Origin: a virus
Taxonomy: Duplodnaviria; Caudoviricetes
Direction: 5' to 3' (one strand)
IMG/VR virus record: IMGVR_UViG_3300037067_007264
Span: 64,001 to 128,000 of that record
Length of the DNA stretch: 64,000 bases
This document shows positions 847-60,112 of this stretch, one piece after another. The notes under the pieces are model-generated. The model saw only the letters and a list, made by a program, of their open reading frames with translations, was not told where the DNA came from and did no database searches. Each line of letters opens with the position of its first letter. The stretch's first letter is position 1. The position numbers were made by a program, and so were the translations under genes.

Positions 847-875
847 TGAGGATTCGAAACCCCGAGCGTAATACT
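847..875 (+). promoter_or_regulatory. class B motif with no downstream ATG
   Basis: TGAG 847, CGTAATACT 867. Confidence 0.55.
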
Positions 876-1107
876 ACTCAATCTGAACTAGGACTTCGAG
901 AGGTAACTTCGCCTCCTTGAGAACCCAGATTGAACCTTCCGTACCGCCAACTTGTCTTTGGTCCTCAAACCAAAGACAAGTAGCTTGCTCTACTCCATTC
1001 TCAGCCACTATTTTGGAGACCACCATATCAGGACCCTCATCAGTATTGAGGTTAACTCTGTCCCCAACTTTTATGGGTACCTCTTCATCATTGTCTATGT
1101 TTGCCAT
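874..1107 (-). CDS. YodC/DUF2158-like small protein
   Basis: IKVGDRVNL..GPDMVV..ATCLWF pattern. Confidence 0.7.
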   Translation of the reverse strand: MANIDNDEEVPIKVGDRVNLNTDEGPDMVVSKIVAENGVEQATCLWFEDQRQVGGTEGSIWVLKEAKLPLEVLVQIE

Positions 1108-1118
1108 GGATTCCCATC

Positions 1119-1706
1119 CTATCTCTTGCCTGATGCTTGTTGAACAACTTGATCAAACGGGGGTAGTGCAGCGGGAGCCTCTCGAGGGGATAGGGAGGGG
1201 GCTGAATCGGAGTGTACTATTACCCCTACCTGAGCCTGTACCCCATCACTCTGGGCTGCTGGCTTCCTTACAACAGCATCTTCCCGTTGGACAGAGGAAA
1301 TCTCTGGAGTCCTCGAGAAGTACCCAGTTTCGGTACCCTTCTTTTTTCGTATCAAGGGTACCAACTGCGGGCCGGCTAAAGGAAGCGGAGTCTCTGGGGG
1401 GCTCGCCGTGCTTGCTATGCTTGCTATGCTTTGGGTTACTTCACCTTTTGTGACCCCAATATAGGCTCTGATGAATGCTTGTAGGTCGTTGTGGTTAGTC
1501 TCAGTATCCTTCGAAAGTTCGTTGAGCCTAGAGGATAAGACCTCGTATGTAGCTTTAGTGGCCGTCGTATCCGGTGGCTTGAACCAACTCGCTGCTGCAG
1601 TTAGAATGGCAGCGGTACCTAAAATGAAACCCCTAGCCGACAGAACCTGGGACAAGATCTTGAAAGCTTTGGATGTTGGGGGCTCAGAAGGATTTTCGTC
1701 GGCCAT
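1119..1706 (-). CDS. membrane-anchored hypothetical protein
   Basis: hydrophobic GFILGTAAILTAAASWF then coiled coil; GGTGTC variant motif upstream. Confidence 0.75.
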   Translation of the reverse strand: MADENPSEPPTSKAFKILSQVLSARGFILGTAAILTAAASWFKPPDTTATKATYEVLSSRLNELSKDTETNHNDLQAFIRAYIGVTKGEVTQSIASIASTASPPETPLPLAGPQLVPLIRKKKGTETGYFSRTPEISSVQREDAVVRKPAAQSDGVQAQVGVIVHSDSAPSLSPREAPAALPPFDQVVQQASGKR

Positions 1707-1741
1707 GATGTTTCATGACACCGGTAAACTGAGAAAAGTAT

Positions 1742-1770
1742 TGAGAAAAGGATCTCTTGCACGTAATACT
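1742..1770 (+). promoter_or_regulatory. class B motif
   Basis: TGAG 1742, CGTAATACT 1762, then AGGAG and ATG 1786. Confidence 0.7.
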
Positions 1771-1785
1771 GATTAGGAGTTCTAA

Positions 1786-2007
1786 ATGAGCAGTAGGCCA
1801 GGGAAATTTGAAGGAGAACCGGGTTATGTTCCGGAGTTCTGGGCTAGAGCAATGGAAGGCTTTGCGGACAATCATGAAGAAGGAGTACTCAGCTTCACTA
1901 TCACTGAAGAGGACGCTAGGAAGTACCCTGAGTTGGTTGTGGGTCACAAGTTGCTGTTGACCGAGTCCACTGACGGATTCGTATTCTCTAGGATCGTCAA
2001 ATGCTGA
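1786..2007 (+). CDS. hypothetical protein
   Basis: class B motif and SD upstream. Confidence 0.8.
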   Translation: MSSRPGKFEGEPGYVPEFWARAMEGFADNHEEGVLSFTITEEDARKYPELVVGHKLLLTESTDGFVFSRIVKC

Positions 2008-2210
2008 ATCTTAGGATAAGAACATTCAAGATATTCTTCCAACGCAGTGACAATACTAAGTTTTTTCGGGTTGTAAGGGAGATCTACTCCGAAAACGCTT
2101 GTCTCTTCGCCGAAAGGGTTGGTCTAGAAGAGGGGGCTATTCCACTATGGCCCTTCGTCGATATCAGTCCTTGGAGGCACAAAAGAGACAGAAGATCGAA
2201 AAATAGTTGA
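2001..2210 (+). CDS. hypothetical protein
   Basis: overlaps upstream stop. Confidence 0.55.
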   Translation: MLNLRIRTFKIFFQRSDNTKFFRVVREIYSENACLFAERVGLEEGAIPLWPFVDISPWRHKRDRRSKNS

Positions 2211-2260
2211 GCTTCATCTCTCTCATCCGTAATAGTGAGTGCAGTTACTAGGAACACCCA

Positions 2261-2509
2261 ATGCAATACGAGGATACAATCAAACCAGAGCCTCTAAACG
2301 AATGTGAATTTCGTTGTGGGTTTAGTATAGCTCGCATTGTATCCCCAAGTGTTTTCGACCGAATCCCCTCCAAGTCTAACTCACTCCGGATGGGTTTCAT
2401 TGCTTACCATTCGATCGCAACAGGAACCTTCTCCTCTGTTGAGGAGCTGGCCGCGGCCGACTTTGCCGAAAGTCTCAACCTAACCCCACCTACTACCAAG
2501 TCTGGATAA
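2261..2509 (+). CDS. hypothetical protein
   Basis: class B motif 2208/2228, AGGA SD. Confidence 0.7.
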   Translation: MQYEDTIKPEPLNECEFRCGFSIARIVSPSVFDRIPSKSNSLRMGFIAYHSIATGTFSSVEELAAADFAESLNLTPPTTKSG

Positions 2510-3445: not shown

Positions 3446-3554
3446 CTTCTAAGTGATACACTTCTTACAAGTAACTTCAATAGAATTGATTCCGATTAGG
3501 TGTCCAGAAACTTTAGTGAGCTTCACGCAGGTGATTCGTAGTACTTGAGGAACC

Positions 3555-3905
3555 ATGCACGCATTGAAAATCAATAGAGATCACTGGATCGGACGACCCC
3601 CAGCTGAGGCTCAACGAGTTGAGCGGTGGACTGGGAAGCGGTGGATACCGGACGACGGACGACCAGGTCTGGCTTTCAGTGGGGTTATCTTTGACGGAAA
3701 CCCTAAATGCGAAATCCCGACCCCGATAGCTTGGACGTCAGGGTGCGAATGCCACCTGATATCTGCAAGCGGGTGCCCTTCAAGTATCGCCGCTCGGTAT
3801 ACGGCCAAGCGATTTGGCTGTAGCAACGGGGATAAAATGATTAGACTTCATCTCCGTTTAGTAGCAAAATCCCAGAAGGTGTCAAGGGGACTTCATGGAA
3901 AATAG
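3555..3905 (+). CDS. hypothetical protein
   Basis: class B motif 3517/3537, GAGG SD. Confidence 0.65.
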   Translation: MHALKINRDHWIGRPPAEAQRVERWTGKRWIPDDGRPGLAFSGVIFDGNPKCEIPTPIAWTSGCECHLISASGCPSSIAARYTAKRFGCSNGDKMIRLHLRLVAKSQKVSRGLHGK

Positions 3906-5009: not shown

Positions 5010-5245
5010 AGTGTCCTTATTGCCTTCAGGACCCCGATAAGCATTCCCCAGGATGTCCAAACCTGTGTACCCTAGATGATGCCCACTGGGCCATTTCAAT
5101 CTACCACCTAGGTCGTGATCGGAGTGTTATGGGACTCCCCTGTCCGGCCGATGCGTCACCCACCTACAAACTAGGATATCACTTTGGAGAGCTCCTAACC
5201 GGGAAGTCTCAAAATCTTAGTGAGGATCCTGGCCCTGGTACGTAA
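5006..5245 (+). CDS. small protein with CxxC..H..C motif
   Basis: ATGA coupling; MKCPYC..HSPGCP. Confidence 0.7.
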   Translation: MKCPYCLQDPDKHSPGCPNLCTLDDAHWAISIYHLGRDRSVMGLPCPADASPTYKLGYHFGELLTGKSQNLSEDPGPGT

Positions 5246-5249
5246 TACT
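5221..5249 (+). promoter_or_regulatory. class B motif, leaderless
   Basis: TGAG 5221, CGTAATACT 5241, ATG 5254. Confidence 0.75.
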
Positions 5250-5253
5250 AGGC

Positions 5254-5688
5254 ATGTACACAAGCCCACTTCATCAAGGTTACCTAGACGCCCTTTACGG
5301 GAAAGATCAAGACCCTGAGCAGACTTGTTCTGAATACGAAGAGGGTTACATTGTAGGCCTATGTGACAGGGATGAACTAGCCGCTGGCACGCAACCTCCG
5401 AAGTTCCTCGGCTGCTATCGGGAAGATGACTTACCCATTAAGAGAGGTCAGGAAGTGATCATCCCCAAGGGTACGATGGTCAAGGTTGTAGGGAAGCCAG
5501 CAAAGCCTGCTGGGAGGACTTACAAGATCACAGTAGCTCACGTGAATAGTGGGAACACCTTCTATGTTAAAGGGAGCGCTTTCCGGAAAGAATACATCCG
5601 TCCAACTTCACCTAAGGTTGTATGGCCTGGCACTGGTGGCTACTGGGCAGAAGCCGACCTGAACGACATACTCAAGGCCAACCCATGA
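5254..5688 (+). CDS. hypothetical protein
   Basis: ATG 13 nt after the C of CGTA. Confidence 0.8.
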   Translation: MYTSPLHQGYLDALYGKDQDPEQTCSEYEEGYIVGLCDRDELAAGTQPPKFLGCYREDDLPIKRGQEVIIPKGTMVKVVGKPAKPAGRTYKITVAHVNSGNTFYVKGSAFRKEYIRPTSPKVVWPGTGGYWAEADLNDILKANP

Positions 5689-6338: not shown

Positions 6339-7196
6339 TTACACTAAGTTCCGTATCGGTTCAAGTCGTACCTTGAGCTTTTTTACGACCTTAGTCTGCA
6401 ATTGGCGTACCCTCTCGCGGGAGACCCCGAGTTGAGTACCTAGTTCCTTGAGGCTCACAACCTCTTCCGGATCCTTCATGAGACGATCCGTCACGATTCT
6501 AATCTCGCGTGGGGTTAGGGAGGACATAGCTTCTTTCACGGATTCTTGGTAGAGAGCTTGAAGCTCATGGTCCACCACATAATCATCCTGTCTCTGCAGG
6601 TCAGAGGACAGACTGTCTCCAATCTCCAAGTGGCTACCATCTTTGCTCCTATGGGAGTCCATCGACAAGGACAAGTCCCTCTTATCGGTAGCCTGCATGA
6701 ATTGTTGAACCTTCTTCAGAGGGAGATTCATGCTCTTTACTAATGCCTGTTCAACCTCACTTGGAGTCGTGTAAGTGTTCTGAGCTCGGACCTTCTCCTT
6801 ATGAAACTTGAAGAAGTCCTTTGATCGAAACTTCACTAAAGAGTTGGTCTCGTTTTGGTACTTGACCACATGTTTGAATAGGTAGGCTCGAATCCAATAC
6901 ACGGCAAATGTGACGAATCGGTTACCACTATCTGGATCGTAACGACTGTCAATAGCCATAAGGAGGCCAAGGTTACCCTCGCTGATCAGCTCCTCTATTG
7001 GAATTGGGTATCGCTTAAACTGAAGGGCAACCGCGGTCACATATCGTAGAGAAGCGTTAATGATCTTTGCTCGAGCTGCATAGTCTCCTTTGTCCCTCCA
7101 AGCCTTGTACAGACGAATCTCCTCTTCTCTTGAGAGTACAGGGATCGACTTCACATAGGTGATGTAGTCAGATATCGTCTTATCAATATGGAACAT
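6339..7196 (-). CDS. RNA polymerase sigma factor, RpoH/sigma32-like
   Basis: region 1.2 LSREEE; region 2 ELISEGNLGLLMAI..YDP..RFVTFAVYWIRA; region 4 LTPREIRIV..SLKELGTQLGVSRERVRQLQ. Confidence 0.95.
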   Translation of the reverse strand: MFHIDKTISDYITYVKSIPVLSREEEIRLYKAWRDKGDYAARAKIINASLRYVTAVALQFKRYPIPIEELISEGNLGLLMAIDSRYDPDSGNRFVTFAVYWIRAYLFKHVVKYQNETNSLVKFRSKDFFKFHKEKVRAQNTYTTPSEVEQALVKSMNLPLKKVQQFMQATDKRDLSLSMDSHRSKDGSHLEIGDSLSSDLQRQDDYVVDHELQALYQESVKEAMSSLTPREIRIVTDRLMKDPEEVVSLKELGTQLGVSRERVRQLQTKVVKKLKVRLEPIRNLV

Positions 7197-10547: not shown

Positions 10548-10751
10548 TCTTTATTTCAGGGCTCTGTAATAACTCTTCTGAGGGTGGATCCTTATTTCAA
10601 TTTTTGCCATCAGATTGAAATAACGGAGGTTGGCCTGTTGTTCAACTGTGAGTAAACATGGGTATAATCGAACCCTTGTAGGTAAATGAGGGCTGCAAAC
10701 TATTTCGACAAAATAGTTGAGTTTTGCTGCTCCTATGCGTAGTACTGCATC

Positions 10752-11822
10752 ATGCAATCTTGTTATCTCGCGGGGCCAGGGACAGTCGACAGGGTTAACA
10801 TCCTACGGGAGGGTACTGATGGGGCAGAGATGAAAGTTGTTCCAGCAAATCCAGTAGTTGTAGAGCTGGTCAAAGAGCGCTATTGTTTCGTGGCCAGCAG
10901 AGACGTTCTATTTGAAGACCCTGAAGCTGCTGGTTTGGAAGCTGAACGGCTTCGAGTTGCAGATATGGAAGCCAGACGTAGACGACAGAAAGAGATTCAA
11001 CAGATGATCAACGCAATGGATAACCAAGGTACGGGTGGGGATACTCAGACACAGGCACCGAATCTCGTTCTGGTGGAAGCCCCTCAAGAGGAGGTAACTC
11101 TTGAAGTGGAAGAGCAAGAAGTCATAGACATAGAGCCGGAGCTTCCGAAATCTAGTCTTGACTTGAGTGAAGAGGACAACGGATCCAACCCCGCCAGTCC
11201 TGTGAACTTCTTGAAGAACATTCAACGGGTGATCGGGAATGAAACCCTATCATTGGAAGAGGTTCACTCAAGGTTGAAGGCTGCTAAGTTGATGCCAGCC
11301 GCTAATAACCCGATCCACTATATCAAGTTTGTCATGTCTCAGGATCGAATCTTATTTGAGCGCCCAACTCGAATGAGTGTTTGCTTGACAGCAGAGAGCC
11401 CTTACTTGGCAACCACTTGGAACCCGGCGAAGGTTTCTACTAAGAAGTCTTCCAAGTCAAAAATTGAAAGTCAAACGCAAACACTTCCACTTGGAACTGT
11501 CAAGAAGAAGCCGGTAAAGAAGCCAGTTGAGCAGAAACCGTTGAAGATCAACCCAGTCTTCTTGACTTGGTTAGGTAATCCGATCACTCAGACGGTTTCG
11601 GACAAAGCTAATTTTGATGGGGAGAAGATGCGGTTACTCGAGCAACAGAAGGGTAACTCCTGGACCTGCGAGATCTTCTTGGTTGATCTGAAGCTATCCT
11701 TCACTGGGGAATCCAAGATGCGGCACCATGCCCGACACAAGGCAGAGGTAGCTATGAAAGAATCCATCAACGAGCTCAACATTCTAGTTCATAACGCTAC
11801 TCATCTAGAAGAAGATGCCTAA
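10752..11822 (+). CDS. protein with central HARE-HTH-like winged helix
   Basis: IQRVIGNETLSLEEVHSRLKAAKLMP..NP; class B motif 10718/10738. Confidence 0.75.
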   Translation: MQSCYLAGPGTVDRVNILREGTDGAEMKVVPANPVVVELVKERYCFVASRDVLFEDPEAAGLEAERLRVADMEARRRRQKEIQQMINAMDNQGTGGDTQTQAPNLVLVEAPQEEVTLEVEEQEVIDIEPELPKSSLDLSEEDNGSNPASPVNFLKNIQRVIGNETLSLEEVHSRLKAAKLMPAANNPIHYIKFVMSQDRILFERPTRMSVCLTAESPYLATTWNPAKVSTKKSSKSKIESQTQTLPLGTVKKKPVKKPVEQKPLKINPVFLTWLGNPITQTVSDKANFDGEKMRLLEQQKGNSWTCEIFLVDLKLSFTGESKMRHHARHKAEVAMKESINELNILVHNATHLEEDA

Positions 11823-21590: not shown

Positions 21591-21716
21591 TAGTGAGTCC
21601 TTGGCATAGATCCATCCTATATCAGGTTTCTAACACTCTGCGCACCTGATATTACGAACGAACTCACTGATTCTCACTAGAATAATTCAGAAACTAATCA
21701 CCGGCCCTAGGTTCAA

Positions 21717-28172: not shown

Positions 28173-28205
28173 TGAGACCTTAGTCTCTCACACGTAGTAC
28201 TGACC

Positions 28206-28517
28206 ATGGCAAAGAAGAAGTATCGCCTTACTTGGAGTAGAGAGCCAAATGAACAGGGTTTGGCCAGCGTCAGTCAAGGACCTCGAGGTGCTGTCCTCAA
28301 GGTCAATGGTGTTCGAGTTGGTCATGTATATGCTAACAGCATAGGTTTCCACGACTACAAGGGTTGGTATTGGGTAGCTCGTCACGGGGGCGCCGATGGT
28401 GACCCAACCATCCCTGAGATCCCCCTCAAGAACACCTGCAATACTCCAACCAAAGAGCTTGAAGACGCCAAGAAGGCGTGCGAAGCCTATGTTCGAGGGG
28501 TCTTAGATAAGGCCTGA
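28206..28517 (+). CDS. hypothetical protein, paralog of 26701 C-terminal domain
   Basis: class B 28173/28193; PRG..NGV.V..GW.W.A..NTCN..AK..C.A. Confidence 0.8.
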   Translation: MAKKKYRLTWSREPNEQGLASVSQGPRGAVLKVNGVRVGHVYANSIGFHDYKGWYWVARHGGADGDPTIPEIPLKNTCNTPTKELEDAKKACEAYVRGVLDKA

Positions 28518-28746: not shown

Positions 28747-29001
28747 TCAATCGTTCCAGGGGTGGCCGTTGGTGACCTCTTCGAGGAGCTTCGTGTAGTA
28801 AGCAATCTGAGCCTCAAGTCCTTGAATGGAGCACCCCTTGTGATGCTTGTCACCGTCTATCGAGATCTGCACGTTGGTCTTCCCGCACTCCCTACACTTC
28901 GGGTAGAACCTTCTATGAGTGAAGGCATCATCCAACCGACACTGCATCTTGCCGATTCTCTGTCGGAGGCGGTACTTGACGGGAGTGTGATTGGCCTTCA
29001 T
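28747..29001 (-). CDS. small CxxC..H..C protein
   Basis: class B variant 29034/29014. Confidence 0.75.
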   Translation of the reverse strand: MKANHTPVKYRLRQRIGKMQCRLDDAFTHRRFYPKCRECGKTNVQISIDGDKHHKGCSIQGLEAQIAYYTKLLEEVTNGHPWND

Positions 29002-29009
29002 GCACAGTA

Positions 29010-29237
29010 CTACGTTTGAGCGGGTGGGATCTCTTCAGTATCCGGGAGTTTTATTTGAAGGTCCTTGTCCGGATGGTAGAGGGAGTAGTCTACTCCAGTG
29101 GCTATCTTAATACTCCCGTTCGGTTGAGGGGTGACCTCCGAGACTCTTTCCCATCCAAAGTAAGTGCAGATACTGATACCTACCATGTCACCTACCTTGA
29201 TGTCCTTAGCCTTTACGTCGAGGGTCTTGTCGTTCAT
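29010..29237 (-). CDS. small beta-barrel-like protein
   Basis: VKAKDIKVGDMV; AAGGA SD. Confidence 0.7.
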   Translation of the reverse strand: MNDKTLDVKAKDIKVGDMVGISICTYFGWERVSEVTPQPNGSIKIATGVDYSLYHPDKDLQIKLPDTEEIPPAQT

Positions 29238-29509: not shown

Positions 29510-30043
29510 TCAGTCTTTACTTTTGCGCGTAGTGCCACGTTTTTGGGCTTTCTTCTCGAACAACTTTGGAAAGTTCTGCTGAATTAGGTTAGCATCCCGT
29601 TCGAGATCTTCAAGGTTAGCAGAACTCCTCAGGAACGGGATGATCCCAGTATTGTCACTACTGAGGAAGTCGAACACGAAACACCCTGAGAACTCCCCGT
29701 TGTGTTGATCTCGATGTAGTCGAAGGACTGGGATTTCGTGAAGCTTTCCCTTAGAAGCTACAATCGAGAGGGTCCGTCCATCTTTTGAGATGAGAGGTTT
29801 GACCCCACGTGTGACAAGCTCACCTACAAGCTTCCCAAGGTAGACTCGAATCTTGTCTTCCATGCTAGCCACCTTGGATTCAGAGTCCAAAGCCCTTTGA
29901 ATAGCTTCCTCCAAAGATGCCTTGATTCGTTGCTTGTTGGCATCGTACTGAGAGACACCGCACTTGGAGGAGATGAAGGTTTGCATGAACCCGAAGTCCA
30001 TGAGAATTTGAGATGCCTTGGAGGCTACTTGTTTTGAGTTCAT
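29510..30043 (-). CDS. hypothetical protein
   Basis: class B 30079/30059. Confidence 0.8.
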   Translation of the reverse strand: MNSKQVASKASQILMDFGFMQTFISSKCGVSQYDANKQRIKASLEEAIQRALDSESKVASMEDKIRVYLGKLVGELVTRGVKPLISKDGRTLSIVASKGKLHEIPVLRLHRDQHNGEFSGCFVFDFLSSDNTGIIPFLRSSANLEDLERDANLIQQNFPKLFEKKAQKRGTTRKSKD

Positions 30044-30093
30044 TCTGTTTAGTACTACGTTTGAGGGGTTAGGATCTCACAACTTTTTTCAAG

Positions 30094-30300
30094 TTACCCC
30101 TCTTCGGGGGTTTCATAGGTATCCTCGAGTGCACTATCAATAGCTCGCTCCGCTTTCAGACAGGCTTCTTCGGTAGCCTCAAGTTCTTCTTCGGTCACTT
30201 GACCTAAACAAGCCAACTGGAGGGCTCGAGTTCTCTCCCGTCTCCTCTCATCCCATGCGTTACGGGCTAGGACCAATTGATGATAGGCCTCTTGATTCAT
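30094..30300 (-). CDS. small helical protein
   Basis: class B 30333/30313, leaderless. Confidence 0.75.
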   Translation of the reverse strand: MNQEAYHQLVLARNAWDERRRERTRALQLACLGQVTEEELEATEEACLKAERAIDSALEDTYETPEEG

Positions 30301-30392
30301 ACCCTATACTACGGATGAGTTCGATGAATCTCACCACATTTCAACAGGCCGACTTTACTTGTGGTAAGAATCTGGTGTAATACCACAGTCTC

Positions 30393-31267: not shown

Positions 31268-31975
31268 ATGGCATCCCACAGAAAACTGAAGTTTCTCAAG
31301 TTTCGAGTTGAGGTTCGTAGCCCTGATGCGTACTATTGTATTGAAAGAGGAACCAGTATGTCAAACGGGGGCAATCTTTTATCGATTCCGAGTGACCGTG
31401 GAGTAGGGAGAGTGGTTTTGAATACCAACGTAACGGTTGGTAACTTTGTGATCCACGTTCAGACGGAAGAAGTAAAGCCAAAGAAGCTGATTGTTACCTA
31501 CGTTTTATACGAGGGTCAGGTCATTGACCGAGTAGAGCGTGGGTACACTGCTCACGAGGACAAGCCAAACCTTAGAGAGCTTATCTCAAAGGTGGCGGAG
31601 GCTCAGCACAGTAAGAAGATTAGGGAGGTCCCGGGTATTTGGGAAGGGTTCAGCAAGAACCTAAAGATATCGATCAAGCCTCCCAAGAGAACCACCTTGA
31701 GACCTGTTCCGATGCCAGTAGCCCCGAAGCTGGATGCAGCCAAGGCTTTGGAGTTGTTCGAGCTAGGGCTAACCCTGTACAAGGAAGATCCTCTGAAAGC
31801 TCAGGAGGCGTGGGAAGAAGCTGCTCACCTCGACCCCGACAATAAAGTCTACCGGGTCAACCTGAAGAAGCTGAGAGACCTGGCCCATGGGGTGTTGATC
31901 AACGACAAGAAGTCCGGTTGCTTCTCAGCATGCTTCAAGCCATCAACGACTCTCAGGTTGGTCAAGGCTGGGTAA
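31268..31975 (+). CDS. TPR-like repeat protein
   Basis: ALELFELGLTLY..AQEAWEEAAHLDPDN; N-domain NTNV..HVQTE..EAQH. Confidence 0.75.
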   Translation: MASHRKLKFLKFRVEVRSPDAYYCIERGTSMSNGGNLLSIPSDRGVGRVVLNTNVTVGNFVIHVQTEEVKPKKLIVTYVLYEGQVIDRVERGYTAHEDKPNLRELISKVAEAQHSKKIREVPGIWEGFSKNLKISIKPPKRTTLRPVPMPVAPKLDAAKALELFELGLTLYKEDPLKAQEAWEEAAHLDPDNKVYRVNLKKLRDLAHGVLINDKKSGCFSACFKPSTTLRLVKAG

Positions 31976-32247: not shown

Positions 32248-32335
32248 GTTTCATTGGGTTACACCGACTAGGGAGCCAACCCATATATTTTGAAGAAAAA
32301 GTTGAGATCTGAAACCCTCACGCGTATTAAATAGC

Positions 32336-33280
32336 ATGGCTAACGAGATCACATTTAAGAAGCTACGGGACGGAAGCTGGGGCATTGCAGGGAAAAACCT
32401 GACAGTCGGGCAAACGGTTACTGTACAGAAGAGATCTGGTGAGACTAGTAGAGTGACCGTTAGTACTATTGTGTGGAAGGGCTCTGATGGCTCTTGCTAC
32501 GCTTCAATAGTAACAACCGGTGCTCCTAGCTCGGACACATCAAGTCAGACTACCTCCACCAAAACAACTCGCCGATCGTCTTCAGGTGTCAGCCGTCGGC
32601 GAAGTCGACGAGAGCCGAAGCATGAAGGTGTCAAGGAAGGCAAGTACTGCTCTTCTCGTGAAGGTGATGAGGGTGACACTGTTGGTCGGGTCTGCTACCT
32701 CAAGAGTCAAGGCAAGCGTATTCCAGTGGTAGTTGTGGGCTGGGAAACCGATTACTGCAAAGAAGATGGGCTTTCATTCGGACTGCCGATGGATGAAGGG
32801 TACTACACTCGGGTGTGTTACCGGGATGCCAATGAGCAAGAAGCCAAGGATCTGGAAGCAGAAGAAGGATCTAAGAAGACAGCCAAGGACAATGCGGCCC
32901 TCGTCGCCAAGCAGGCTCTTGAAGCAGCCATGAACACGGCACGTGTTCCTCTGGAGGGTCTTACCAAGAGTGATAGCCTCCTAGCACCAAAAGGTACTCG
33001 AACGCCTGTTGGTTCTTACAAGAACGGATTCGGGAACAGTGTATCAATCACCAAGATTGAACTCGAGAGTGGGTTGGTTGTTTACCACGAGATGATCTCG
33101 ATATACGATGATCAACGGGATTACATCTGGGGAACGGTGGAGGATTTGAGTGTTCTGTACGAACAGAGGCTTGCTGAGAATCCAGTGACCGTCGAAGAAG
33201 CTCGAGCATACTTAGACAAGTACTATGGATGCTACGGATCAAGTCTTTACCAATACGTTGTAGACAAGGAGCAAGGATAG
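32336..33280 (+). CDS. hypothetical protein
   Basis: class B 32303/32323, leaderless. Confidence 0.85.
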   Translation: MANEITFKKLRDGSWGIAGKNLTVGQTVTVQKRSGETSRVTVSTIVWKGSDGSCYASIVTTGAPSSDTSSQTTSTKTTRRSSSGVSRRRSRREPKHEGVKEGKYCSSREGDEGDTVGRVCYLKSQGKRIPVVVVGWETDYCKEDGLSFGLPMDEGYYTRVCYRDANEQEAKDLEAEEGSKKTAKDNAALVAKQALEAAMNTARVPLEGLTKSDSLLAPKGTRTPVGSYKNGFGNSVSITKIELESGLVVYHEMISIYDDQRDYIWGTVEDLSVLYEQRLAENPVTVEEARAYLDKYYGCYGSSLYQYVVDKEQG

Positions 33281-34849: not shown

Positions 34850-34886
34850 CCCCTGAGATCCGGACCTTTCACACGTAGTACTGATC

Positions 34887-35408
34887 ATGGCAACCTATCG
34901 AGACACTCTAGTCCAAGCCCTCATAGAGTGGCCAAGCTTATACCTGAATGAAGACGACGTCTTAGACCAGATGTTCTTCACGGTTGGGGGTGGGTATGAG
35001 TGGAAAAACGGCCAATTGGTTGATGTTGACCTGGAGTATCCACCAAGTCCCGGACTCGAGAAGAGACGGGCAGACCCTTGGAAAACCCGTCTTGAGAATA
35101 GAGAGTACCGAGAGTCATGCTCGAAGTACACGGGTTATGGATGTGTCTACTTCCAGATGAGATCTGGTCACATTGGAAGAAGAATGAACACTATGTTCGG
35201 GAACTGCAGTACCCTCTGCAACCTCCCGGGTAACATAAAACCTGACTGGCTCGCAGCCGCCAAGCGAGCCATTAGGTATGCCAAGTCGAACCGAATGAAG
35301 ACTACCATTGTCCAGTGGGCGTGGTTAACGTCAGTGGTTGCTCGGATCAAGGAGATAGAGTACATCCAAAAACCGGTGAAGAAGTCTCGCAGAAAGAAGG
35401 CCGCCTAA
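34887..35408 (+). CDS. hypothetical protein
   Basis: class B 34854/34874, leaderless. Confidence 0.85.
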   Translation: MATYRDTLVQALIEWPSLYLNEDDVLDQMFFTVGGGYEWKNGQLVDVDLEYPPSPGLEKRRADPWKTRLENREYRESCSKYTGYGCVYFQMRSGHIGRRMNTMFGNCSTLCNLPGNIKPDWLAAAKRAIRYAKSNRMKTTIVQWAWLTSVVARIKEIEYIQKPVKKSRRKKAA

Positions 35409-41614: not shown

Positions 41615-41901
41615 TGACCGTTTCGTGAACTGGAAGAAGGGTAAGAAACCATCGAAGTTCGAAATCGAAACGGTGATCCGTCAATTCTTCTAATCAAGAA
41701 CCAGACAGAAATCCAATGAAATGCTTATCCAGATTTTCTTCCCGTGGGCCGCGTCACTCATCCTAACTACGACAATTGGTTTGGTCCTAGAGCCAGATGA
41801 CTCAGAGTACTCACCGAACATCATGGAGCAACCTGAACTGGAAGAAGGGGATGGTTGCTGATTTTTGGTGAGATTAGGTTACCCTGTGCGTAATATTGAA
41901 C

Positions 41902-42183
41902 ATGGCACACTCAGTCCGGAAAGGCCCTCTCGTTCACTCTACTGGCCCCAATGATCATGAAGCCTTAGGCCGAGAACGATTCTGGGACATGTCCGAGCAA
42001 CAACGGGAAGATAACCTGGCCGCTATGGTAGCCCTGGCCAATTCAGGTGTTCTTCAAGCACCTGATAAGGAGTTCGCCCGTGGTTGGCTATCGGAGCACG
42101 AACGGTTCAAGCAAACACGAAAAACCGTGTCAATGATGGCTGTAAGTAGTACAGTGCCCCCAAAGAACCCCAGGATTCACTGA
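41902..42183 (+). CDS. hypothetical protein
   Basis: class B 41869/41889, leaderless. Confidence 0.75.
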   Translation: MAHSVRKGPLVHSTGPNDHEALGRERFWDMSEQQREDNLAAMVALANSGVLQAPDKEFARGWLSEHERFKQTRKTVSMMAVSSTVPPKNPRIH

Positions 42184-44005: not shown

Positions 44006-44335
44006 TTATTTGGACTTGGCCTTCTCTTCCAGATACTGACGAGGGTCATCCTCACCTGTCTCTGGATCCGACCACTCTTCCCATCCTGGAGTACCGTTAC
44101 CATCAGTATCCAATGACCATTGCTGGACACCTCCGGCATTACTGTAGTCCGGCTTGATTCGGTTCTCGTACTGAAAGAGATCGTACTGGGCGAGGATATC
44201 CATTACCCGTACTCCCATTTCGAGTGAGTCTACCGGTACAGTGAATGGTTTACCAGGTACCTGAGGTATCCACCATACCTGGAGGTCGCCTACTTTATGA
44301 TTCGGAACCTGTCGGGGCTGTTTTTTAGTTTTCAT
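44006..44335 (-). CDS. P22 gp17-like (superinfection-exclusion-related family) protein
   Basis: LQVWWIPQVPGKPF.V.V.S..YDLFQYENRIKPDYSNAGG; class B 44368/44348. Confidence 0.8.
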   Translation of the reverse strand: MKTKKQPRQVPNHKVGDLQVWWIPQVPGKPFTVPVDSLEMGVRVMDILAQYDLFQYENRIKPDYSNAGGVQQWSLDTDGNGTPGWEEWSDPETGEDDPRQYLEEKAKSK

Positions 44336-44419
44336 GCCCAATACTACGTTTCAAGAAGGGCAACCTCAACAAGAAAGATTTGAGCTTGCCCTTCTTGAAG
44401 ATTCCTTGTAGTTAGAAGA

Positions 44420-44930: not shown

Positions 44931-44996
44931 ACTTTGGGGCTTCATTTGTTGTAACTAATTTGCTGAGATCTGAACTACTTGCACGTAGTATTGATC

Positions 44997-45599
44997 ATGG
45001 ATGAGCTAGAACTTGATAACCTTCCCGTAGCCTCAGATGAGCTGGCTGCGAGCCTCAAAACTCTAGTAGTCGATGGATCCGATAAGATCCGGGACTACTC
45101 GACTTATGTTACCCTTCGGAAGTTTGACATCGAGTGCACGATTACCGCGGAGTGGACCTTCAACTTTGGTGATAAGGGTCGCTACTTCAATGATTCCCAA
45201 GGTAATGAGTTCATCCAGTCTACCTTGAGGGTCACCATCAGCCACCAGAGTCAGGCCTCTGATGACCTCGACCTAACTATAAGCAGGGTCAAGTTCATTC
45301 TTGCCTGCTGTGAGGCGGCAAATAAACTCAAGGCTGCCAACGAGGGTAAGAGGGTCTATCAGGTGTGGGAGACCGTTGAGGATAAGGCGAGGAAACTTCA
45401 CGAGAAGAACAAGAAAGACCTCCTGACCTCTATTCGGTCTCACCTCAACGGAATGCGAGTCAAGAACAGTCGAACCTTTTGTGATGAAAGCTTCTCGGAC
45501 GTGCTCGTACAAGGTGACTACGACATAGAGATCCTGGCCAAGAAGTACCATGTCAATGTAAGCTTCTCCAAGATAGTCACTGTTACAAGGACAGCATAG
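44997..45599 (+). CDS. hypothetical protein
   Basis: class B 44964/44984, leaderless. Confidence 0.85.
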   Translation: MDELELDNLPVASDELAASLKTLVVDGSDKIRDYSTYVTLRKFDIECTITAEWTFNFGDKGRYFNDSQGNEFIQSTLRVTISHQSQASDDLDLTISRVKFILACCEAANKLKAANEGKRVYQVWETVEDKARKLHEKNKKDLLTSIRSHLNGMRVKNSRTFCDESFSDVLVQGDYDIEILAKKYHVNVSFSKIVTVTRTA

Positions 45600-45644
45600 T
45601 CAAGTATTTTGGTGAGATCCAACTACCTGCTTCGTAATACTGAC

Positions 45645-45965
45645 ATGGATTCGCTAACTCAGATCATCATTAGGGCTCGTAGCATCAGTTCTGATGCTTG
45701 GGACTTGAATGTAGAGGCTACTCCACATGGAGATCAGGAGCCTGTCATTGAAGCTCGACGGCAATGTCTGGCCGCATATGATGATGCTCTTCAGGCTACC
45801 TCACTACGAGAAGCTCACCTCTATCTTCAGATTGCTAGGGATCTTGAGGAACAATGGAGCACTGCTTCCGAGGCCGAGACGGCCCTCGACAATCCGATGT
45901 TTGACCCTCAACCATTATCTTCCAGAAGTCGAATGGCCCAAGCTCTCGAGGTAGACTTCCTATGA
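45645..45965 (+). CDS. hypothetical protein
   Basis: class B 45613/45633. Confidence 0.8.
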   Translation: MDSLTQIIIRARSISSDAWDLNVEATPHGDQEPVIEARRQCLAAYDDALQATSLREAHLYLQIARDLEEQWSTASEAETALDNPMFDPQPLSSRSRMAQALEVDFL

Positions 45966-47293: not shown

Positions 47294-47545
47294 ATGACTC
47301 ATCTGACAACTTCCCTCTCTGCTTGGAAGAAGTATCGATCGGGTCTTGCCCTGGCTAGGGCTGATCAGGAATCGGTTACCAAGGCCGAACAGCATCTTGA
47401 CCGGAAGGAGGGGAACAAGATCATCCTGACCAAGCGTGGCCAGCCCTTTGCCTACGTGGTCTCCTACGGTGAGGGGTATGAGTTCGATCGAATCCCTTTA
47501 GTGGTGAGATCCAAGCCCCTCAACCGTAGTACTGAGCATGACTGA
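47294..47545 (+). CDS. Phd/YefM-like small protein (tentative)
   Basis: KIILTKRGQPFAYVVSY. Confidence 0.6.
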   Translation: MTHLTTSLSAWKKYRSGLALARADQESVTKAEQHLDRKEGNKIILTKRGQPFAYVVSYGEGYEFDRIPLVVRSKPLNRSTEHD

Positions 47546-47967: not shown

Positions 47968-48372
47968 ATGACCAACTTTGCCCAGGCTCACTTGAAGAAG
48001 TATTCAGTTGACACGCTGGATCCTAGAACCTTGAGGATTCTCATTAAGGGTGCTGACAAGGGCCTAGCTTGGGCCAATTACCTAGTAGCTATCGTGCCCT
48101 CGGATGACTCTCTTATGAGTGAACTTCAGGCCGAGGTCACTGAGCTGACTGAGGCTAAGGCACTAATGTCTCAAGAGCTCGAGAAGAAACTTCAAGCCTG
48201 TCAGGAAGCTTGGGGTAAGGTCATTGATGAGGAGAGGGCAGTTCGTTTTGTGACCCGTGGTGGAAGTACTACCGAAGATGAGTACCCTACTCCGGAGTCG
48301 GCCCGAGAAGCCATTGCAGAATTGAGCCAGAACTACACCTTCACATGTGTTGAATTAGTAAAAAAGGGGTGA
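47968..48372 (+). CDS. hypothetical coiled-coil protein
   Basis: operon. Confidence 0.75.
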   Translation: MTNFAQAHLKKYSVDTLDPRTLRILIKGADKGLAWANYLVAIVPSDDSLMSELQAEVTELTEAKALMSQELEKKLQACQEAWGKVIDEERAVRFVTRGGSTTEDEYPTPESAREAIAELSQNYTFTCVELVKKG

Positions 48373-48398
48373 GATCTCACCCCCTCACACGTAATACT
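48370..48398 (+). promoter_or_regulatory. class B motif, consensus copy
   Basis: TGAGATC 48370, CGTAATACT 48390, ATG 48403. Confidence 0.75.
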
Positions 48399-48402
48399 GA
48401 GC

Positions 48403-48711
48403 ATGACCACCTCGACCAACCCCACGATTACCACTGGTTGCATCGTCTACGTCCGCAAGGGTTGCAATTCGTGGCCCAACATCTCGAAGGGTACCACCCT
48501 CCAGGTATTGGAGATCACTCCGATGGGGTCTGACCACAGTCATCAGGTTCGGGTACTTTTCAAGTCCCTGAATGGTAGCCGACGGGGTTCAACGTTCGCT
48601 ATGTACGCCCGTCACATCAATCGCCTGTCGGACCCCTTCACCCGTCTCAACCAGGGTGACCCAACCACGAACATCGAAATCGAGTTCCTAACAGCTCCGG
48701 TTACCCAATAG
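48403..48711 (+). CDS. hypothetical protein
   Basis: leaderless class B. Confidence 0.8.
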   Translation: MTTSTNPTITTGCIVYVRKGCNSWPNISKGTTLQVLEITPMGSDHSHQVRVLFKSLNGSRRGSTFAMYARHINRLSDPFTRLNQGDPTTNIEIEFLTAPVTQ

Positions 48712-50096: not shown

Positions 50097-50274
50097 GTTT
50101 GAAAATTATTCTTTGAGAAGATGTTGAGATCCAAGACCGTCATCCGTATTACTAAGCATGACGGGCTGGAAAGACAGCTGGGAATCGAGGCTCTCCCTTG
50201 ATGGAATGACCGGTACCGAAGCGGTCACAAACACCTACCTAGCTTAATGAGCTTACTGTCCGGATGGAGTTACT

Positions 50275-53461: not shown

Positions 53462-53780
53462 AGACCCACCGAAGAAGCAGTTTATTGTCAGAACCAAGCG
53501 CTGCCAGAAGCTGGTGGTGGACCCCGTGACAATTCAGGTTCACGGTAAGTTGTTTTGCACTGCCAGCTTGGATGGGTTGGCTTCAAAAGAACTCGATGAG
53601 TTCATGACGGTCTTTGAGAAGCTTGTTGGGATACCCTGTATTGTCACCAACTACCCCATGGACATCAAGCTGTTGGAGATCATTGAAGCACCTGATACAC
53701 CAGAAGAACCTGAGCCTCGAACTCGCTTTGAACGAATCAATGAAGACGAGTCATCGACTGACAGGGAAGACGACGCGTAA
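53454..53780 (+). CDS. protein with near-C-terminal TRFER tag
   Basis: EPRTRFERINEDE. Confidence 0.8.
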   Translation: MPEDPPKKQFIVRTKRCQKLVVDPVTIQVHGKLFCTASLDGLASKELDEFMTVFEKLVGIPCIVTNYPMDIKLLEIIEAPDTPEEPEPRTRFERINEDESSTDREDDA

Positions 53781-53904
53781 CAAGCCTGAGTTGCCCACAA
53801 AAGAATCAGAGTCTACTGAATAGGCTACAAGTTTAGGGTAAACCAAGTTAGTTCTTGAGTTGAGCTACCTAGTGTCAACTTTCTATCTGTAACTCATAAC
53901 TTGG

Positions 53905-57581: not shown

Positions 57582-57600
57582 GTATAAGAAAAGAGACGAG

Positions 57601-57879
57601 TCACCGACTAACGGGGAAGACCACACGTAGGTAGTTCTTCATTCCGGGCTGAGTCACCTTAGTGCCAGGGAAAGCCTCTTGAAAGGCCTCTGAGTAAGGC
57701 CCAAGGTCATCCTTCACGTCAGTCCCGATATCGACTACATTGGCCCGGTTTTGAATAACCTTCGCGTGGAAGGGGACATTCTTCTTTAGCCAAGTATTGA
57801 TGGCTCGAACATCGATCCCCCACATGTTGGAGGCCGACATGCGTTCCACAACTCGAGCAATGATATGCAGGTCATCCAT
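57601..57879 (-). CDS. protein with N-terminal IIARVVER segment
   Basis: MDDLHIIARVVERMSAS. Confidence 0.75.
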   Translation of the reverse strand: MDDLHIIARVVERMSASNMWGIDVRAINTWLKKNVPFHAKVIQNRANVVDIGTDVKDDLGPYSEAFQEAFPGTKVTQPGMKNYLRVVFPVSR

Positions 57880-57885
57880 AGAACC

Positions 57886-58533
57886 TCAGTGGTAGCGGTA
57901 GCTGACCTTCAGATCACTCCAAACCTCACGCAACTCGCGGATATCCATCTTCATAACCTTGGATAGGTTGTCCTTCAAGTAAGCATAGAAGATGGCTGCA
58001 CTCTGCTTGTTGTTTGACCAGTAGCCGGTGTCCTGGGCAAAGCCGGGCTTATTAGGATCACCTTCGACCCTACCAAACCAAAATCGATGTAGGACATTGA
58101 ACTCGACGGGGCTCGCTGTTATCTCGTCACCTGCTAGGGTCTTGAACTTGATCTCAGAACCTGCTGGAGCAACTTCAATGGCCTTGATATTCTGCTCGTG
58201 AGTGACTACTGAGTGATCGGGTTCGGTCTCCTTGGCATCGGCCGCAACCTTCTTGACATCAGCCCAAGTGTCACACTTGGCCAATTGGGCTATCATGGTC
58301 TCGAACCATTTCTCAGTGTCACCCTTGTAGTAGTTGTCGTTCAGGACGATTGTAATCTCCGGCACTGACTTTCCGCGCTTACCGGCTAGGGTCAGATCTC
58401 GGATTTGCAAGTGATTTGAACTTCGATATACGTGGAAGGTATTATCCTTGCCAGTGTAGAACCCCCTTCCGACTGGCACTCCAGCTGCTTGTACCCTCCT
58501 GGCCACTCGGCTGATGATTATCAGATCGTTCAT
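57886..58533 (-). CDS. protein with N-terminal IISRVARR segment
   Basis: MNDLIIISRVARRVQAA. Confidence 0.8.
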   Translation of the reverse strand: MNDLIIISRVARRVQAAGVPVGRGFYTGKDNTFHVYRSSNHLQIRDLTLAGKRGKSVPEITIVLNDNYYKGDTEKWFETMIAQLAKCDTWADVKKVAADAKETEPDHSVVTHEQNIKAIEVAPAGSEIKFKTLAGDEITASPVEFNVLHRFWFGRVEGDPNKPGFAQDTGYWSNNKQSAAIFYAYLKDNLSKVMKMDIRELREVWSDLKVSYRYH

Positions 58534-58612
58534 ACTCAGTGTACTTTGATAGAAGGTTTAGGTATATGGTGTACCTAAACTTAACCCACATTTACGTGGA
58601 TGACCAGACCCA

Positions 58613-59170
58613 ATGCCCCCTGAACCCGATGATATAGAAGAGTACTGGGGTGTAGCCCGCCCCGAGCGGTTGGTTACACCCCAGTCAGTACCCTCTGAGT
58701 CAATGACTGTTGAGGAGGTTCTAAAGACCATCAAGAAGTTCAACAAGGAAGTTCTTTGCATGGGCCTTGCCGTTATGGTGAACCATGGAGATGTAAGCTC
58801 ACCTACAATTGTTGCTGAATCTGCCAAAGAGCTTGAACGCTTGACGAAGAATACCTTGGTTCAATTGACCCTACTAGCTGGGGTTCCTGTAAGTATACTA
58901 AAACAGTGCAATGACTCGAGGACAAATGTCAGATCTAGGAACCTCGATGACCCGAGAGCTTCCAACAACCTCTTCATGCCTGACAGGACTGAGGAGCCTC
59001 AGAGTATGCGCATCCTCCCTCAGGGGCAAGTAAGGTCAGCAATGGGTCGTATCCTACAACCTCAATCCCGTTGTTCTAATTGTGGAGTACTTACTAACTC
59101 AAATCAACGGTTGTGTGACCCGTGTAGGGTTCACCGAGCTCAGGCCAGAAGGCGCAGGTCAGGTTACTAA
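58613..59170 (+). CDS. N-terminal IEEYW-tag protein with C-terminal zinc ribbon
   Basis: PDDIEEYWGVARP; CSNC..CDPC; GGTGTA 58568. Confidence 0.8.
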   Translation: MPPEPDDIEEYWGVARPERLVTPQSVPSESMTVEEVLKTIKKFNKEVLCMGLAVMVNHGDVSSPTIVAESAKELERLTKNTLVQLTLLAGVPVSILKQCNDSRTNVRSRNLDDPRASNNLFMPDRTEEPQSMRILPQGQVRSAMGRILQPQSRCSNCGVLTNSNQRLCDPCRVHRAQARRRRSGY

Positions 59171-59171
59171 G

Positions 59172-59387
59172 ATGACCAAGTGTAGTCAATGTTCAAGCGG
59201 ACGAATACGACTCACCGGGGTTCAAGGTGAGTTGAACGGTCGAGACCAGAATCGAATGGGAAAGCACCTGCTCCCTTATAAATTACAGTATAAGTGCATA
59301 AGTTGTGGGCACCTCGGGTGGACTCGTGACCCAAGGTTGGTCCCTGACCAGAGTTCTAAAGTTGCTATTGCTGGTACCCCAGATTAA
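59172..59387 (+). CDS. small zinc-ribbon protein
   Basis: CSQC..CISCGH. Confidence 0.7.
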   Translation: MTKCSQCSSGRIRLTGVQGELNGRDQNRMGKHLLPYKLQYKCISCGHLGWTRDPRLVPDQSSKVAIAGTPD

Positions 59388-59402
59388 TGCAATTGTACCT
59401 GG

Positions 59403-59852
59403 ATGATCCTAGAAACTAGAACCAAGGCTACTGTAGAAGAGGGTATTAAGCTTCGAGAGGAGCTCGAGGGGAGGTTGTTTGTTTCTTACACCCCCGGAAA
59501 CGGCACCGTCTACCACCTATTACTCACCAAACTCAACGGTTTTTGTGAGTTAGTCACCGATCTAATTGGGATCGGACCCAAGTGTTGGCTGGTGACTCTG
59601 CTGAATCAGGAGCCCCGCCCATCGGCCCTTATTTCGGACAATGGCCAACTATTGCATTGGAGCTATGTGGGAGAGAAGCTGAATCTAAGGACACCCGACG
59701 CCGTAGTCGTGGCCGAGTTGATCGGGCACCTCACCGGGAGGCCCTACATCACTGGTGAAGAGGTGATGAGTGATATTGAGGAGGAGATGGTGTCCTCTGA
59801 GGTATTACCTAAATTGAGTGAAGATGATGAGGTTGCAGAGGTTGTCCCGTAA
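59403..59852 (+). CDS. hypothetical protein
   Basis: YTPGNGTVY..WSYVGEKL. Confidence 0.75.
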   Translation: MILETRTKATVEEGIKLREELEGRLFVSYTPGNGTVYHLLLTKLNGFCELVTDLIGIGPKCWLVTLLNQEPRPSALISDNGQLLHWSYVGEKLNLRTPDAVVVAELIGHLTGRPYITGEEVMSDIEEEMVSSEVLPKLSEDDEVAEVVP

Positions 59853-59860
59853 TACTGAGC

Positions 59861-60112
59861 ATGACCCAGACAAGCAAAATTAATCCTGCCCAAGCTAGAG
59901 CCGAAGTTCACGCCGATGTAGCCAGCCAGCTTCTATTGGAAGCCTCGCAGGCCAAAGGGTTCCGTCGTCAAGTCTTGGTTGCAAGGGCTAAGATCCACTT
60001 ATCCGCTCTACAGGACTGGATAACCCCAGAGGCCCCTCCAGAGGCTCATGTAGCCCTTCGAGAATTGAACAGTGTTTTGGCCCAGTTCGAGATGGAAGCC
60101 AAGCCTAACTGA
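59861..60112 (+). CDS. small helical protein
   Basis: class B 59828/59848, leaderless. Confidence 0.8.
   Translation: MTQTSKINPAQARAEVHADVASQLLLEASQAKGFRRQVLVARAKIHLSALQDWITPEAPPEAHVALRELNSVLAQFEMEAKPN

Follow-up and report, generated by a model that had tools for sequence, protein, structure and literature searches.

Class B, a bipartite motif and very probable phage-specific promoter of predicted leaderless genes in related phages with genomes of about half a megabase

Known promoter systems and the class B motif

Phage sigma factors such as gp28 and gp33/34 of SPO1 and gp55 of T4 redirect the host core polymerase to phage-specific classes of promoters. Here, we analysed a recurrent bipartite motif, TGAG-N16-CGTA(A/G)TACT (class B), in a stretch of 64,000 nucleotides from a phage of the Caudoviricetes (IMG/VR record IMGVR_UViG_3300037067_007264), and consider it a very probable phage-specific promoter in a phage clade with genomes of ~0.5 Mb. 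The whole stretch, called the window in the following, covers bases 64001-128000 of the 145,487-bp contig G000 (48.9% G+C), and positions refer to the window unless a contig is named. While the promoters of the SPO1 and T4 sigma cascades are not tied to leaderless starts, such starts are predicted for most class B sites, and the pairing of class B with a sigma factor is that of a candidate. The kind of arrangement is already known, and what is new is the consensus and its occurrence in an unstudied clade of very large phages. A description of the motif or of the clade was not found in searches of the literature on leaderless transcription, huge phages and phage-encoded sigma factors or late promoters; nearly all that is known of phages of this size comes from metagenomes.

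The consensus of Bacillus subtilis sigma-W, a sigma factor of the extracytoplasmic function (ECF) type, contains an N16 spacer (TGAAAC-N16-CGTA), and the distance from the first T of the upstream box to the C of CGTA amounts to 22 nt there and to 20 nt in class B, whose box TGAGAT shares four of six letters with TGAAAC. Because of its CGTA core, class B had initially been annotated as typical of alternative or ECF-type sigma factors. This comparison holds for the -10 core CGTA, which was itself part of the search pattern, and for the fixed spacer of short length, both of which class B has in common with the sigma-W type (TGAAAC ... CGTA) (PMC5758882), but not for the -35 box, since the accessible text of the same study gives ECF promoters an AAC in the -35 element, which TGAGAT(C) lacks (PMC5758882). 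Spacer optima of 14-17 bp are reported there for ECF promoters, together with a modulation of selectivity by the spacer sequence (PMC5758882). Further differences concern the -10 box of class B, which is 9 nt long, and the gene of the candidate sigma factor S2 (see below), which is not adjacent to class B sites and shows no sign of autoregulation; a search for an anti-sigma factor was not made. S2 consists of domains 2 and 4 only, like the ECF sigma factors, yet it is nearer to FliA in sequence.

FliA (sigma-28) provides a second parallel, and the sigma factors S1 and S2 of the clade are themselves FliA-like. In the sigma-28 open complex, as given in the accessible part of the respective study, the -10 element is (-15)GCCGATAA(-8) and the -35 element is (-36)TCTAAAG(-30) (PMC12784957). 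If the A of the ATG is numbered +1, class B is alike in geometry, and in geometry only, with TGnTGAG at -36 to -30 and CG at -13/-12 (PMC12784957). Sigma-28 targets flagellar genes, whereas class B stands before phage open reading frames (ORFs) without recognizable relatives (ORFans), whose starts would be leaderless.

Leaderless transcription has been described for the Thermus phages YS40 and Lalka27a. According to the accessible text, the A or G of the start codon is the first base of most of their transcripts, transcription begins six bases downstream of the -10 element, and temporal classes are marked by distinct -10 motifs (bioRxiv 10.64898/2026.04.20.719267). Class B is similar to these promoters in that counting six bases on from TARTAC leads to the A of the ATG. 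As presented in that text, Lalka27a encodes no sigma factor and its promoters keep TANNNT, whereas class B combines a strict -35 box with a -10 box that misfits TANNNT. The class B phages also differ in their size of ~0.5 Mb and their several sigma genes, and their starts are predicted from sequence.

Another comparison is offered by the promoter early stem-loops (PeSLs) of T4-type phages, which are composite terminator/promoter elements read by host sigma-70, whereas no consistent stem-loop was evident for class B (the sites were not folded, and the sole obvious palindrome lies at site 48370). The accessible text describes PeSLs as conserved early promoters repeated in ORFan-rich plastic regions, where they form exchange points between unrelated sequences (PMC4122927). 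Class B may resemble PeSLs as described there, as homology between related phages starts at the motif in several of nine orthologous pairs.

Motif, start codons and conservation

Contig G000 is classed as a virus record (28% complete), is dense with small ORFs and gives phage-like PHROG and Pfam matches; a megablast search with 8 kb against the phage collection returned no near-identical phage record. The contig is collinear, in reversed orientation, with positions 255,819 to ~140,000 of G001 at 71-82% nucleotide identity. Because G001 is a relative of 512,571 bp with direct terminal repeats and is estimated to be complete, G000 is taken as a fragment of a phage of ~0.5 Mb.

The exact form TGAG-N16-CGTARTACT (R = A or G) occurred 12 times in the window, compared to a mean of 0.00 in 100 shuffles, and the relaxed form TGAG-N16-CGTAnTA 21 times versus 0.06 expected. 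CGTARTACT alone was present in 13 copies (0.34 expected), and precisely 20 nt before each of them we found the upstream box, which reads TGAG everywhere except at 29034, where it is AGAG. Scanning all spacings from N12 to N20 returned N16 alone, with 21 occurrences in the window and 26 in the contig. A matrix derived from 21 sites of the window identified 27 contig sites scoring 24 bits or more, and the range from 12 to 24 bits was empty, which shows that class B is sharply bounded. All 27 are located within positions 24,878-136,728 of the contig, 26 of them between 56 and 137 kb; 22 fall into the window, and the other five start at contig positions 24878(-), 56140(+), 63790(-), 128968(+) and 136728(+).

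These results largely bear out the initial annotation, which had listed 21 sites in the window with an invariant distance between TGAG and CGTA: all 21 carry the motif, and the spacing is indeed fixed. The proposed box CGTA(A/G)TACT is exact at 13 of these sites only, the other eight deviating in the last five bases, and the list, although real throughout, was incomplete, because site 31309(+) had been overlooked. The sites of the window are given below, followed by one neighbouring gene; distances are counted from the C of CGTA to the ATG.

847..875, plus strand: class B site; no ATG within 60 nt, which suggests a leadered or non-coding target
1742..1788, plus strand: class B site; ATG at 1786, 24 nt after the C; AGGAG in a short leader
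2208..2263, plus strand: class B site with -10 box CGTAATAGT; ATG at 2261, 33 nt after the C; AGGAA in the leader
3517..3557, plus strand: class B site; ATG at 3555, 18 nt after the C; GAGGAA in the leader
5221..5256, plus strand: class B site; ATG at 5254, 13 nt; 144-aa ORF; orthologous site in G001
10718..10754, plus strand: class B site; ATG at 10752, 14 nt; 356-aa ORF; orthologous site in G001
21648..21676, minus strand: class B site, weakest of the 21 listed initially (25.5 bits); no convincing ORF behind it
28173..28208, plus strand: class B site; ATG at 28206, 13 nt; 103-aa ORF
28999..29034, minus strand: class B site with AGAG box; ATG at 29001, 13 nt; 84-aa ORF; orthologous site in G001
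30041..30079, minus strand: class B site; ATG at 30043, 16 nt (predicted 3-nt leader); 177-aa ORF
30298..30333, minus strand: class B site; ATG at 30300, 13 nt; 68-aa ORF
31309..31360, plus strand: class B site, newly added (24.0 bits); ATG at 31358, 29 nt; GAGGAA in the leader
32303..32338, plus strand: class B site with -10 box CGTATTAAA; ATG at 32336, 13 nt; 314-aa ORF; orthologous site in G001
34854..34889, plus strand: class B site; ATG at 34887, 13 nt; 173-aa ORF; homology with G001 begins at TGAG
41869..41904, plus strand: class B site; ATG at 41902, 13 nt; 93-aa ORF
44333..44368, minus strand: class B site; ATG at 44335, 13 nt; 109-aa ORF with PF17420 (superinfection exclusion gp17)
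44964..44999, plus strand: class B site; ATG at 44997, 13 nt; 200-aa ORF
45613..45647, plus strand: class B site; ATG at 45645, 12 nt; 106-aa ORF
47505..47540, plus strand: class B site; ATG at 47538, 13 nt; 142-aa ORF
48370..48405, plus strand: class B site with the top score (49.5 bits); ATG at 48403, 13 nt; 102-aa ORF
50125..50160, plus strand: class B site with -10 box CGTATTACT; ATG at 50158, 13 nt; 29-aa ORF only
59828..59863, plus strand: class B site; ATG at 59861, 13 nt; 83-aa ORF
6339..7196, minus strand: gene for an RpoH-like protein of the sigma-70 family, 285 aa; listed as context and unlikely to be what reads class B

The 29-mer of the newly added site 31309 is identical in a related contig of G009, a metagenome-assembled genome (MAG) considered below. 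At site 48370, an 18-nt perfect palindrome (48366-48383) overlaps the -35 box, and an A-run before it gives it a terminator-like appearance on the minus strand.

An ATG follows on the same strand 12-14 nt after the C of CGTA at 17 of the 27 contig sites, 15 of the 17 lying at exactly 13 nt. Fifteen of the 17 belong to the window, as the initial annotation had counted, and 13 of these are at 13 nt. ORFs of at least 40 aa are opened at 15 of the 17 sites, most of them without an in-frame start further upstream. At sites 1742, 2208, 3517 and 31309, the gap is 18-33 nt, and AGGAG, AGGAA or GAGGAA is present at Shine-Dalgarno distance. To obtain a larger sample, we pooled non-redundant sites of G000, of parts of G001 and of further relatives, 85 in total, of which 82 have sufficiently long flanks. 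The ATG is located at 12-14 nt in 59 of the 85 sites and in 56 of the 82 long-flank sites, which leaves no space for a Shine-Dalgarno sequence, whereas 10 of the 16 sites with at least 17 nt to the ATG show a Shine-Dalgarno-like 4-mer at the right distance (15% in random 12-mers). Since exactly such a split between fixed ATG and leader with ribosome-binding site is predicted by a start ~13 nt after the C of CGTA, it is the best available evidence that the mRNAs would be leaderless. A pyrimidine-purine step occurs at the predicted -1/+1 positions (12/13 nt after the C) in 64 of the 82 sites, 45 of which have CA.

The anatomy of the motif was derived from a matrix of the 85 sites, with the A of the ATG as +1 and with TGAG imposed by the search. 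Upstream of the boxes, positions -43 to -36 are rich in A and T (A at -40 in 56 of 85 sites), and -35 is G in 64. TGAG at -33 to -30 is followed by A, T and C at -29, -28 and -27 in 73, 69 and 60 sites, by a variable segment from -26 to -20, and by an optional CTCA (-19 to -16; C, T, C and A in 66, 72, 56 and 55 of 85). CGTARTACT occupies -13 to -5, its R being A in 49 and G in 30 sites, and the last four bases before the ATG are GAGC-like. CTCA is the reverse complement of TGAG, and both are placed symmetrically about -24.5. The TGAGATC box also contains GATC, at positions -30 to -27.

Class B is conserved among related phages. An exact scan of IMG/VR for TGAGATC-N13-CGTARTACT returned 24 loci, mostly with an ATG at the same distance. 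G001 accounts for 11 sites, a 98-kb contig for four and a 228-kb contig for two, and the others lie elsewhere. The pattern TGAG-N16-CGTAnTAYT was found 21, 25, 6, 2 and 2 times in G000 to G004, respectively, and the reversed control gave 0 in each. Nine site pairs of G000 and G001 were judged orthologous by their downstream coding sequences. Among these, the positions of the boxes are identical in 8-9 of nine pairs and those of the spacer from -19 to -14 are kept in 8-9 as well, even where they do not read CTCA, compared to just 4-7 for -27 to -20 and 1-8, mostly 3-6, for the upstream flank. Judged by eye, similarity between both phages starts at TGAG in several pairs (34854, 29034, 50125), while the upstream flank is also conserved in others, e.g., 10718 and 32303, and the orthologous 50125 cassette resides at a non-syntenic place in G001. 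Homology starting at TGAG together with this displaced cassette suggests that promoter and gene travel as a unit, and to judge from the nine pairs class B may have a role in genetic exchange.

A second motif, YGGTGTA followed after 9-10 nt by ATG (class A), is common over the whole G000 contig, structural genes included, and has no -35 box. Outside a clustered regularly interspaced short palindromic repeats (CRISPR) array, 48 of 89 GGTGTA copies have an ATG 8-13 nt downstream. The strict N10 form of YGGTGTA occurred 16 times in G000 versus 0 in the control and 27 versus 4 times in G001, and it was not enriched in the bacterial MAG G006 (18 versus 18). Examples in the window are 7810(-), 10207(-), 12424(+), 15131(-), 18172(+), 19111(+) and the pair 39393(-)/39400(+); the motif often occurs in such back-to-back divergent pairs and, outside the window, also heads a major-head-like ORF. 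In a crude gene call with 251 starts, 50 were preceded by YGGTGTA, 18 by class B, 70 by a Shine-Dalgarno-like sequence and 113 by none of these. Leaderless starts therefore appear to be a habit of the whole phage, with class B as a subclass equipped with a -35 box. Position, orientation, conservation and the leaderless/Shine-Dalgarno split thus all support the promoter reading proposed initially; they likewise argue for leaderless starts at class B sites, although such starts are not peculiar to this class, because the second motif would have them too. Together, class B and the YGGTGTA class provide a testable map of transcription units for the clade.

Polymerase, candidate sigma factors and rival explanations

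We propose that a bacterial-type core RNA polymerase with an alternative sigma factor would bind both boxes and initiate transcription on the A of the ATG or no more than one or two bases from it. An mRNA starting there would have neither a leader nor a Shine-Dalgarno sequence and would be translated as a leaderless message. From position and conservation, it appears highly likely that class B is a promoter and that transcription starts no more than 2 nt from the ATG. The most likely sigma factor would be the FliA-like S2 of the phage, whose C-terminus is encoded at the left contig end, or its N-terminally extended paralog S1. Given that class B is a promoter, we see even chances that it is read by a phage sigma factor of the S1/S2 type, and the whole explanation, sigma factor included, is put forward tentatively. 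Promoter and small ORFan gene would move together between genomes.

Matches to the large-subunit families PF00562 and PF00623 were absent from G000, G001 and G003 and present in all 14 control genomes, which suggests that the phage is most likely transcribed by the host core polymerase, although a very divergent polymerase of the phiKZ kind could be missed. The family of single-subunit polymerases (PF00940) matched nowhere, controls included, and is uninformative. Canonical sigma-70 promoters were not enriched (18 found versus 19.0 expected in 20 kb).

Three sigma-like genes other than the RpoH-like gene of the window, among them those for S1 and S2, are present in G001. S2 (188 aa, domains 2 and 4 only) is nearest to the FliA/WhiG models of NCBIfam, and its best relative of solved structure is FliA (E 3.5e-15). 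Its ortholog is cut by the left end of G000, where the last 80 aa are 68% identical, and a related phage whose contigs were binned into MAG G009 encodes a copy of 70% identity. The paralog S1 shares 39% identity with S2 over 145 aa and has a nearly identical region 2; its orthologs start with (M/V)ANFADPK and carry a helix-turn-helix-like N-terminal extension. All eight S1-ortholog loci, in G001, G002, G004 and five metagenome contigs, also have class-B-like sites. The five metagenome contigs contain 19 of these, 12 with an ATG at 12-14 nt and 6 with N17 instead of N16, while none was found in eight high-G+C contigs with weaker sigma hits. Such a co-occurrence is consistent with a phage-encoded reader of the S1/S2 type. 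The covariation of sigma factor and -35 box was not informative, as there are too few independent lineages; only the TGAG core is common to them, and the following letters vary by lineage.

The sigma genes themselves have other upstream sequences. The S1 orthologs (L034 (G001:77,0xx), L088, L089, L091-L093, L084) share a conserved upstream box of their own, followed by GGGGTA 7-17 nt before the start, the S2 operon is preceded by a class A site, and the RpoH-like gene lies 53 nt behind an ORF headed by a class A site. In G001, a class B site precedes the probable S1 start by ~445 nt. A 12-nt stretch is common to the 5' region of the RpoH-like gene (7197-7230) and the region upstream of S1 in G001.

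Several points weigh against our explanation or parts of it. All carriers of S1/S2 and the motif are related phages, and their association may reflect common descent only. Alternative sigma factors are often autoregulated, and we saw no sign of this here, as class B does not stand directly before any of the sigma genes. The start at the ATG is a prediction to which the available RNA data add nothing, nor do they point to a habitat: run X1 contained 0.23 of the sampled words and four other runs next to none, and over positions 41001-61000 X1 gave 16 contigs of low depth, too shallow to show 5' ends, and X2 none. One contig matches site 47505 over its 38 nt only, with unlike flanks, and represents a relative's promoter. 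Finally, the letters of class B (TGnTGAG/CGTARTACT) differ from those of the sigma-28 elements given in the accessible part of the study cited above (TCTAAAG/GCCGATAA) (PMC12784957).

Some of these points would be accommodated if the same promoters with the same leaderless starts were read by a host sigma factor, primary or alternative, early in infection and before phage proteins are available, which we consider somewhat unlikely. Such a reader would agree with the lack of class B directly before phage sigma genes and with the cargo of small ORFans and a superinfection-exclusion homolog, a content typically found in early or accessory regions. It would also agree with the richness in A from -43 to -39, the expected place of a proximal UP element, and with the clustering of 12 of the 25 G001 sites 19-88 kb from one terminal repeat. 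A primary sigma factor is contradicted by the -10 box, because CGTARTACT, in whatever register, fails to place A at -11 and T at -7 as long as the ATG is kept as the start.

The remaining evidence for a host sigma factor comes from bacterial contigs. The promoter pattern had 11 matches in nine loci of genome_contigs. Six of them, on small contigs of MAG G009 (labelled Omnitrophota), were rejected as a lead to the host, as these contigs are pieces of a related phage and their binning is not evidence of a host; three singletons are chance-like, with ORFs of 1-28 aa. The other two look real, with CTCA in place, G at -35 and an ATG at 13 nt, and are located in MAGs labelled delta proteobacteria, one adjoining a PLD-type nuclease gene and the other type I restriction-modification genes:

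L060, G006:C14: class-B-like site opening a 206-aa resolvase, beside a PLD-type nuclease gene
L063, G007:C40: class-B-like site opening a 339-aa tyrosine integrase, beside type I restriction-modification genes

These leaderless sites before recombinase genes could mean that a host sigma factor reads the motif. The motif is, however, not enriched in the two MAGs (1 versus 1 in the control and 3 versus 2 in the control) or in 61 genomes of the family of G006 (3 sites versus 10 in the control), which is a weak test because these are candidate hosts only. Together with the counts in G000 to G004, this makes the motif phage-specific within the records searched. We also considered a very doubtful reading in which both copies would serve as infection sensors, the FliA-like sigma factor of an arriving phage turning on a recombinase that rearranges a defence locus; class B would then be a portable module of phage-sigma promoter and leaderless ORF, read only by the minimal FliA-like sigma factor of the megaphage. 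G007 also contains two identical class-B-like 29-mers (C31:101900 and C55:59944), each followed by a 4-aa ORF, which may belong to a repeated element.

A different division of labour, in which only the -10 box is read by a sigma factor while an activator or repressor of the phage binds the upstream box, is unlikely in our view. The protein could be MotA-like, since TGAGATC is centred at -30 as in the T4 MotA box, or it could bind as a dimer to TGAG-N10-CTCA, centred at -24.5. Such a regulator would explain the length of the conserved upstream block (~12 bp, -37 to -26), the reverse complementarity of TGAG with the frequent CTCA and perhaps the preservation of the -19 to -14 spacer segment, which extends to pairs without CTCA. 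The symmetry comprises only 4 bp, however, and CTCA is absent at many good sites such as 5221, 10718 and 59828. No candidate regulator was identified, and the strict N16 spacing is what a single sigma factor with two DNA-binding domains predicts.

It is very unlikely that class B is not a promoter at all and marks a recombination site at cassette boundaries or acts as a signal at the level of RNA or translation. The homology of G000 and G001 that starts at TGAG in several pairs and the non-syntenic 50125 cassette would be expected of a recombination site, but according to the accessible text on T4-type phages, conserved promoters are themselves known recombination points (PMC4122927). The fixed bipartite layout at -35/-10 distances from the ATG, the pyrimidine-purine step at the predicted start and the appearance of Shine-Dalgarno sequences where the gap is longer all argue for a promoter, and no Rfam family was matched in the window.

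Extremely improbable as a reader is the RpoH-like sigma factor of the window (regions 2, 3 and 4; nearest to RpoH models, below their cut-offs), which is the sole full-length sigma gene there and lies among class B sites, but which has no match at E <= 0.001 in G001-G005 and is replaced at the syntenic place of G001 by ~1.4 kb of sequence that is unrelated and contains an ORF of 239 aa, likewise unrelated, so that it represents an accessory gene of G000 and is dispensable for class B, given that G001 is complete and keeps 25 sites without it.

Cargo, implications and further features of the contig

The cargo of class B consists, as judged from the predicted proteins, of small ORFan cassettes with one superinfection-exclusion homolog. 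Of 21 proteins encoded behind class B sites, 20 had no match in PHROG; 18 of the 19 also scanned against Pfam had none there, and neither had two further ones. The exception is the 109-aa protein encoded at 44006-44335(-) behind site 44368, which matches superinfection exclusion gp17 (PF17420, E 2.9e-25; phrog_1510). The dedicated regulon suggested initially therefore stands as a promoter class of a phage clade heading ORFan cassettes, and not as a host stress regulon or as the exclusive seat of leaderless starts. A joint movement of promoter and gene would explain the shuffling of ORFan cassettes in these genomes, and the motif points to a host in which leaderless translation works well. Class B templates together with S1, S2 and the RpoH-like sigma factor represent defined reagents for studying a phage sigma cascade.

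Some features of G000 outside these subjects were also noted. An adenylosuccinate-synthase homolog (G000 C1:12,850-14,256) carries a PurZ-like label in PHROG, which would suggest a modified-base genome with 2-aminoadenine; this was rejected because NCBIfam favours PurA, with the PurZ model far below its cut-off, and all NCBIfam models are below their cut-offs for this protein. An abundant 36-nt repeat, at one point considered as promoter class A, turned out to be the CRISPR array mentioned above, which lies outside the window (G000 C1:137,800-141,300; ~45 repeats, 36-37 nt unit, period ~72) and whose repeat had no match in genome_contigs. The array adjoins ORFs of 220 aa and 584 aa, the latter (C1:141,493-143,919) with weak TnpB/Cas12f-like matches (NCBIfam TnpB subfamily, E 1e-9; PDB Cas12f1, E 3.3e-5). 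A TnpB-type protein of 432 aa is encoded at G000 C1:58,899-60,197, and its nearest Atlas cluster is mostly labelled Cyanobacteriota, which provides a weak lead to the host.

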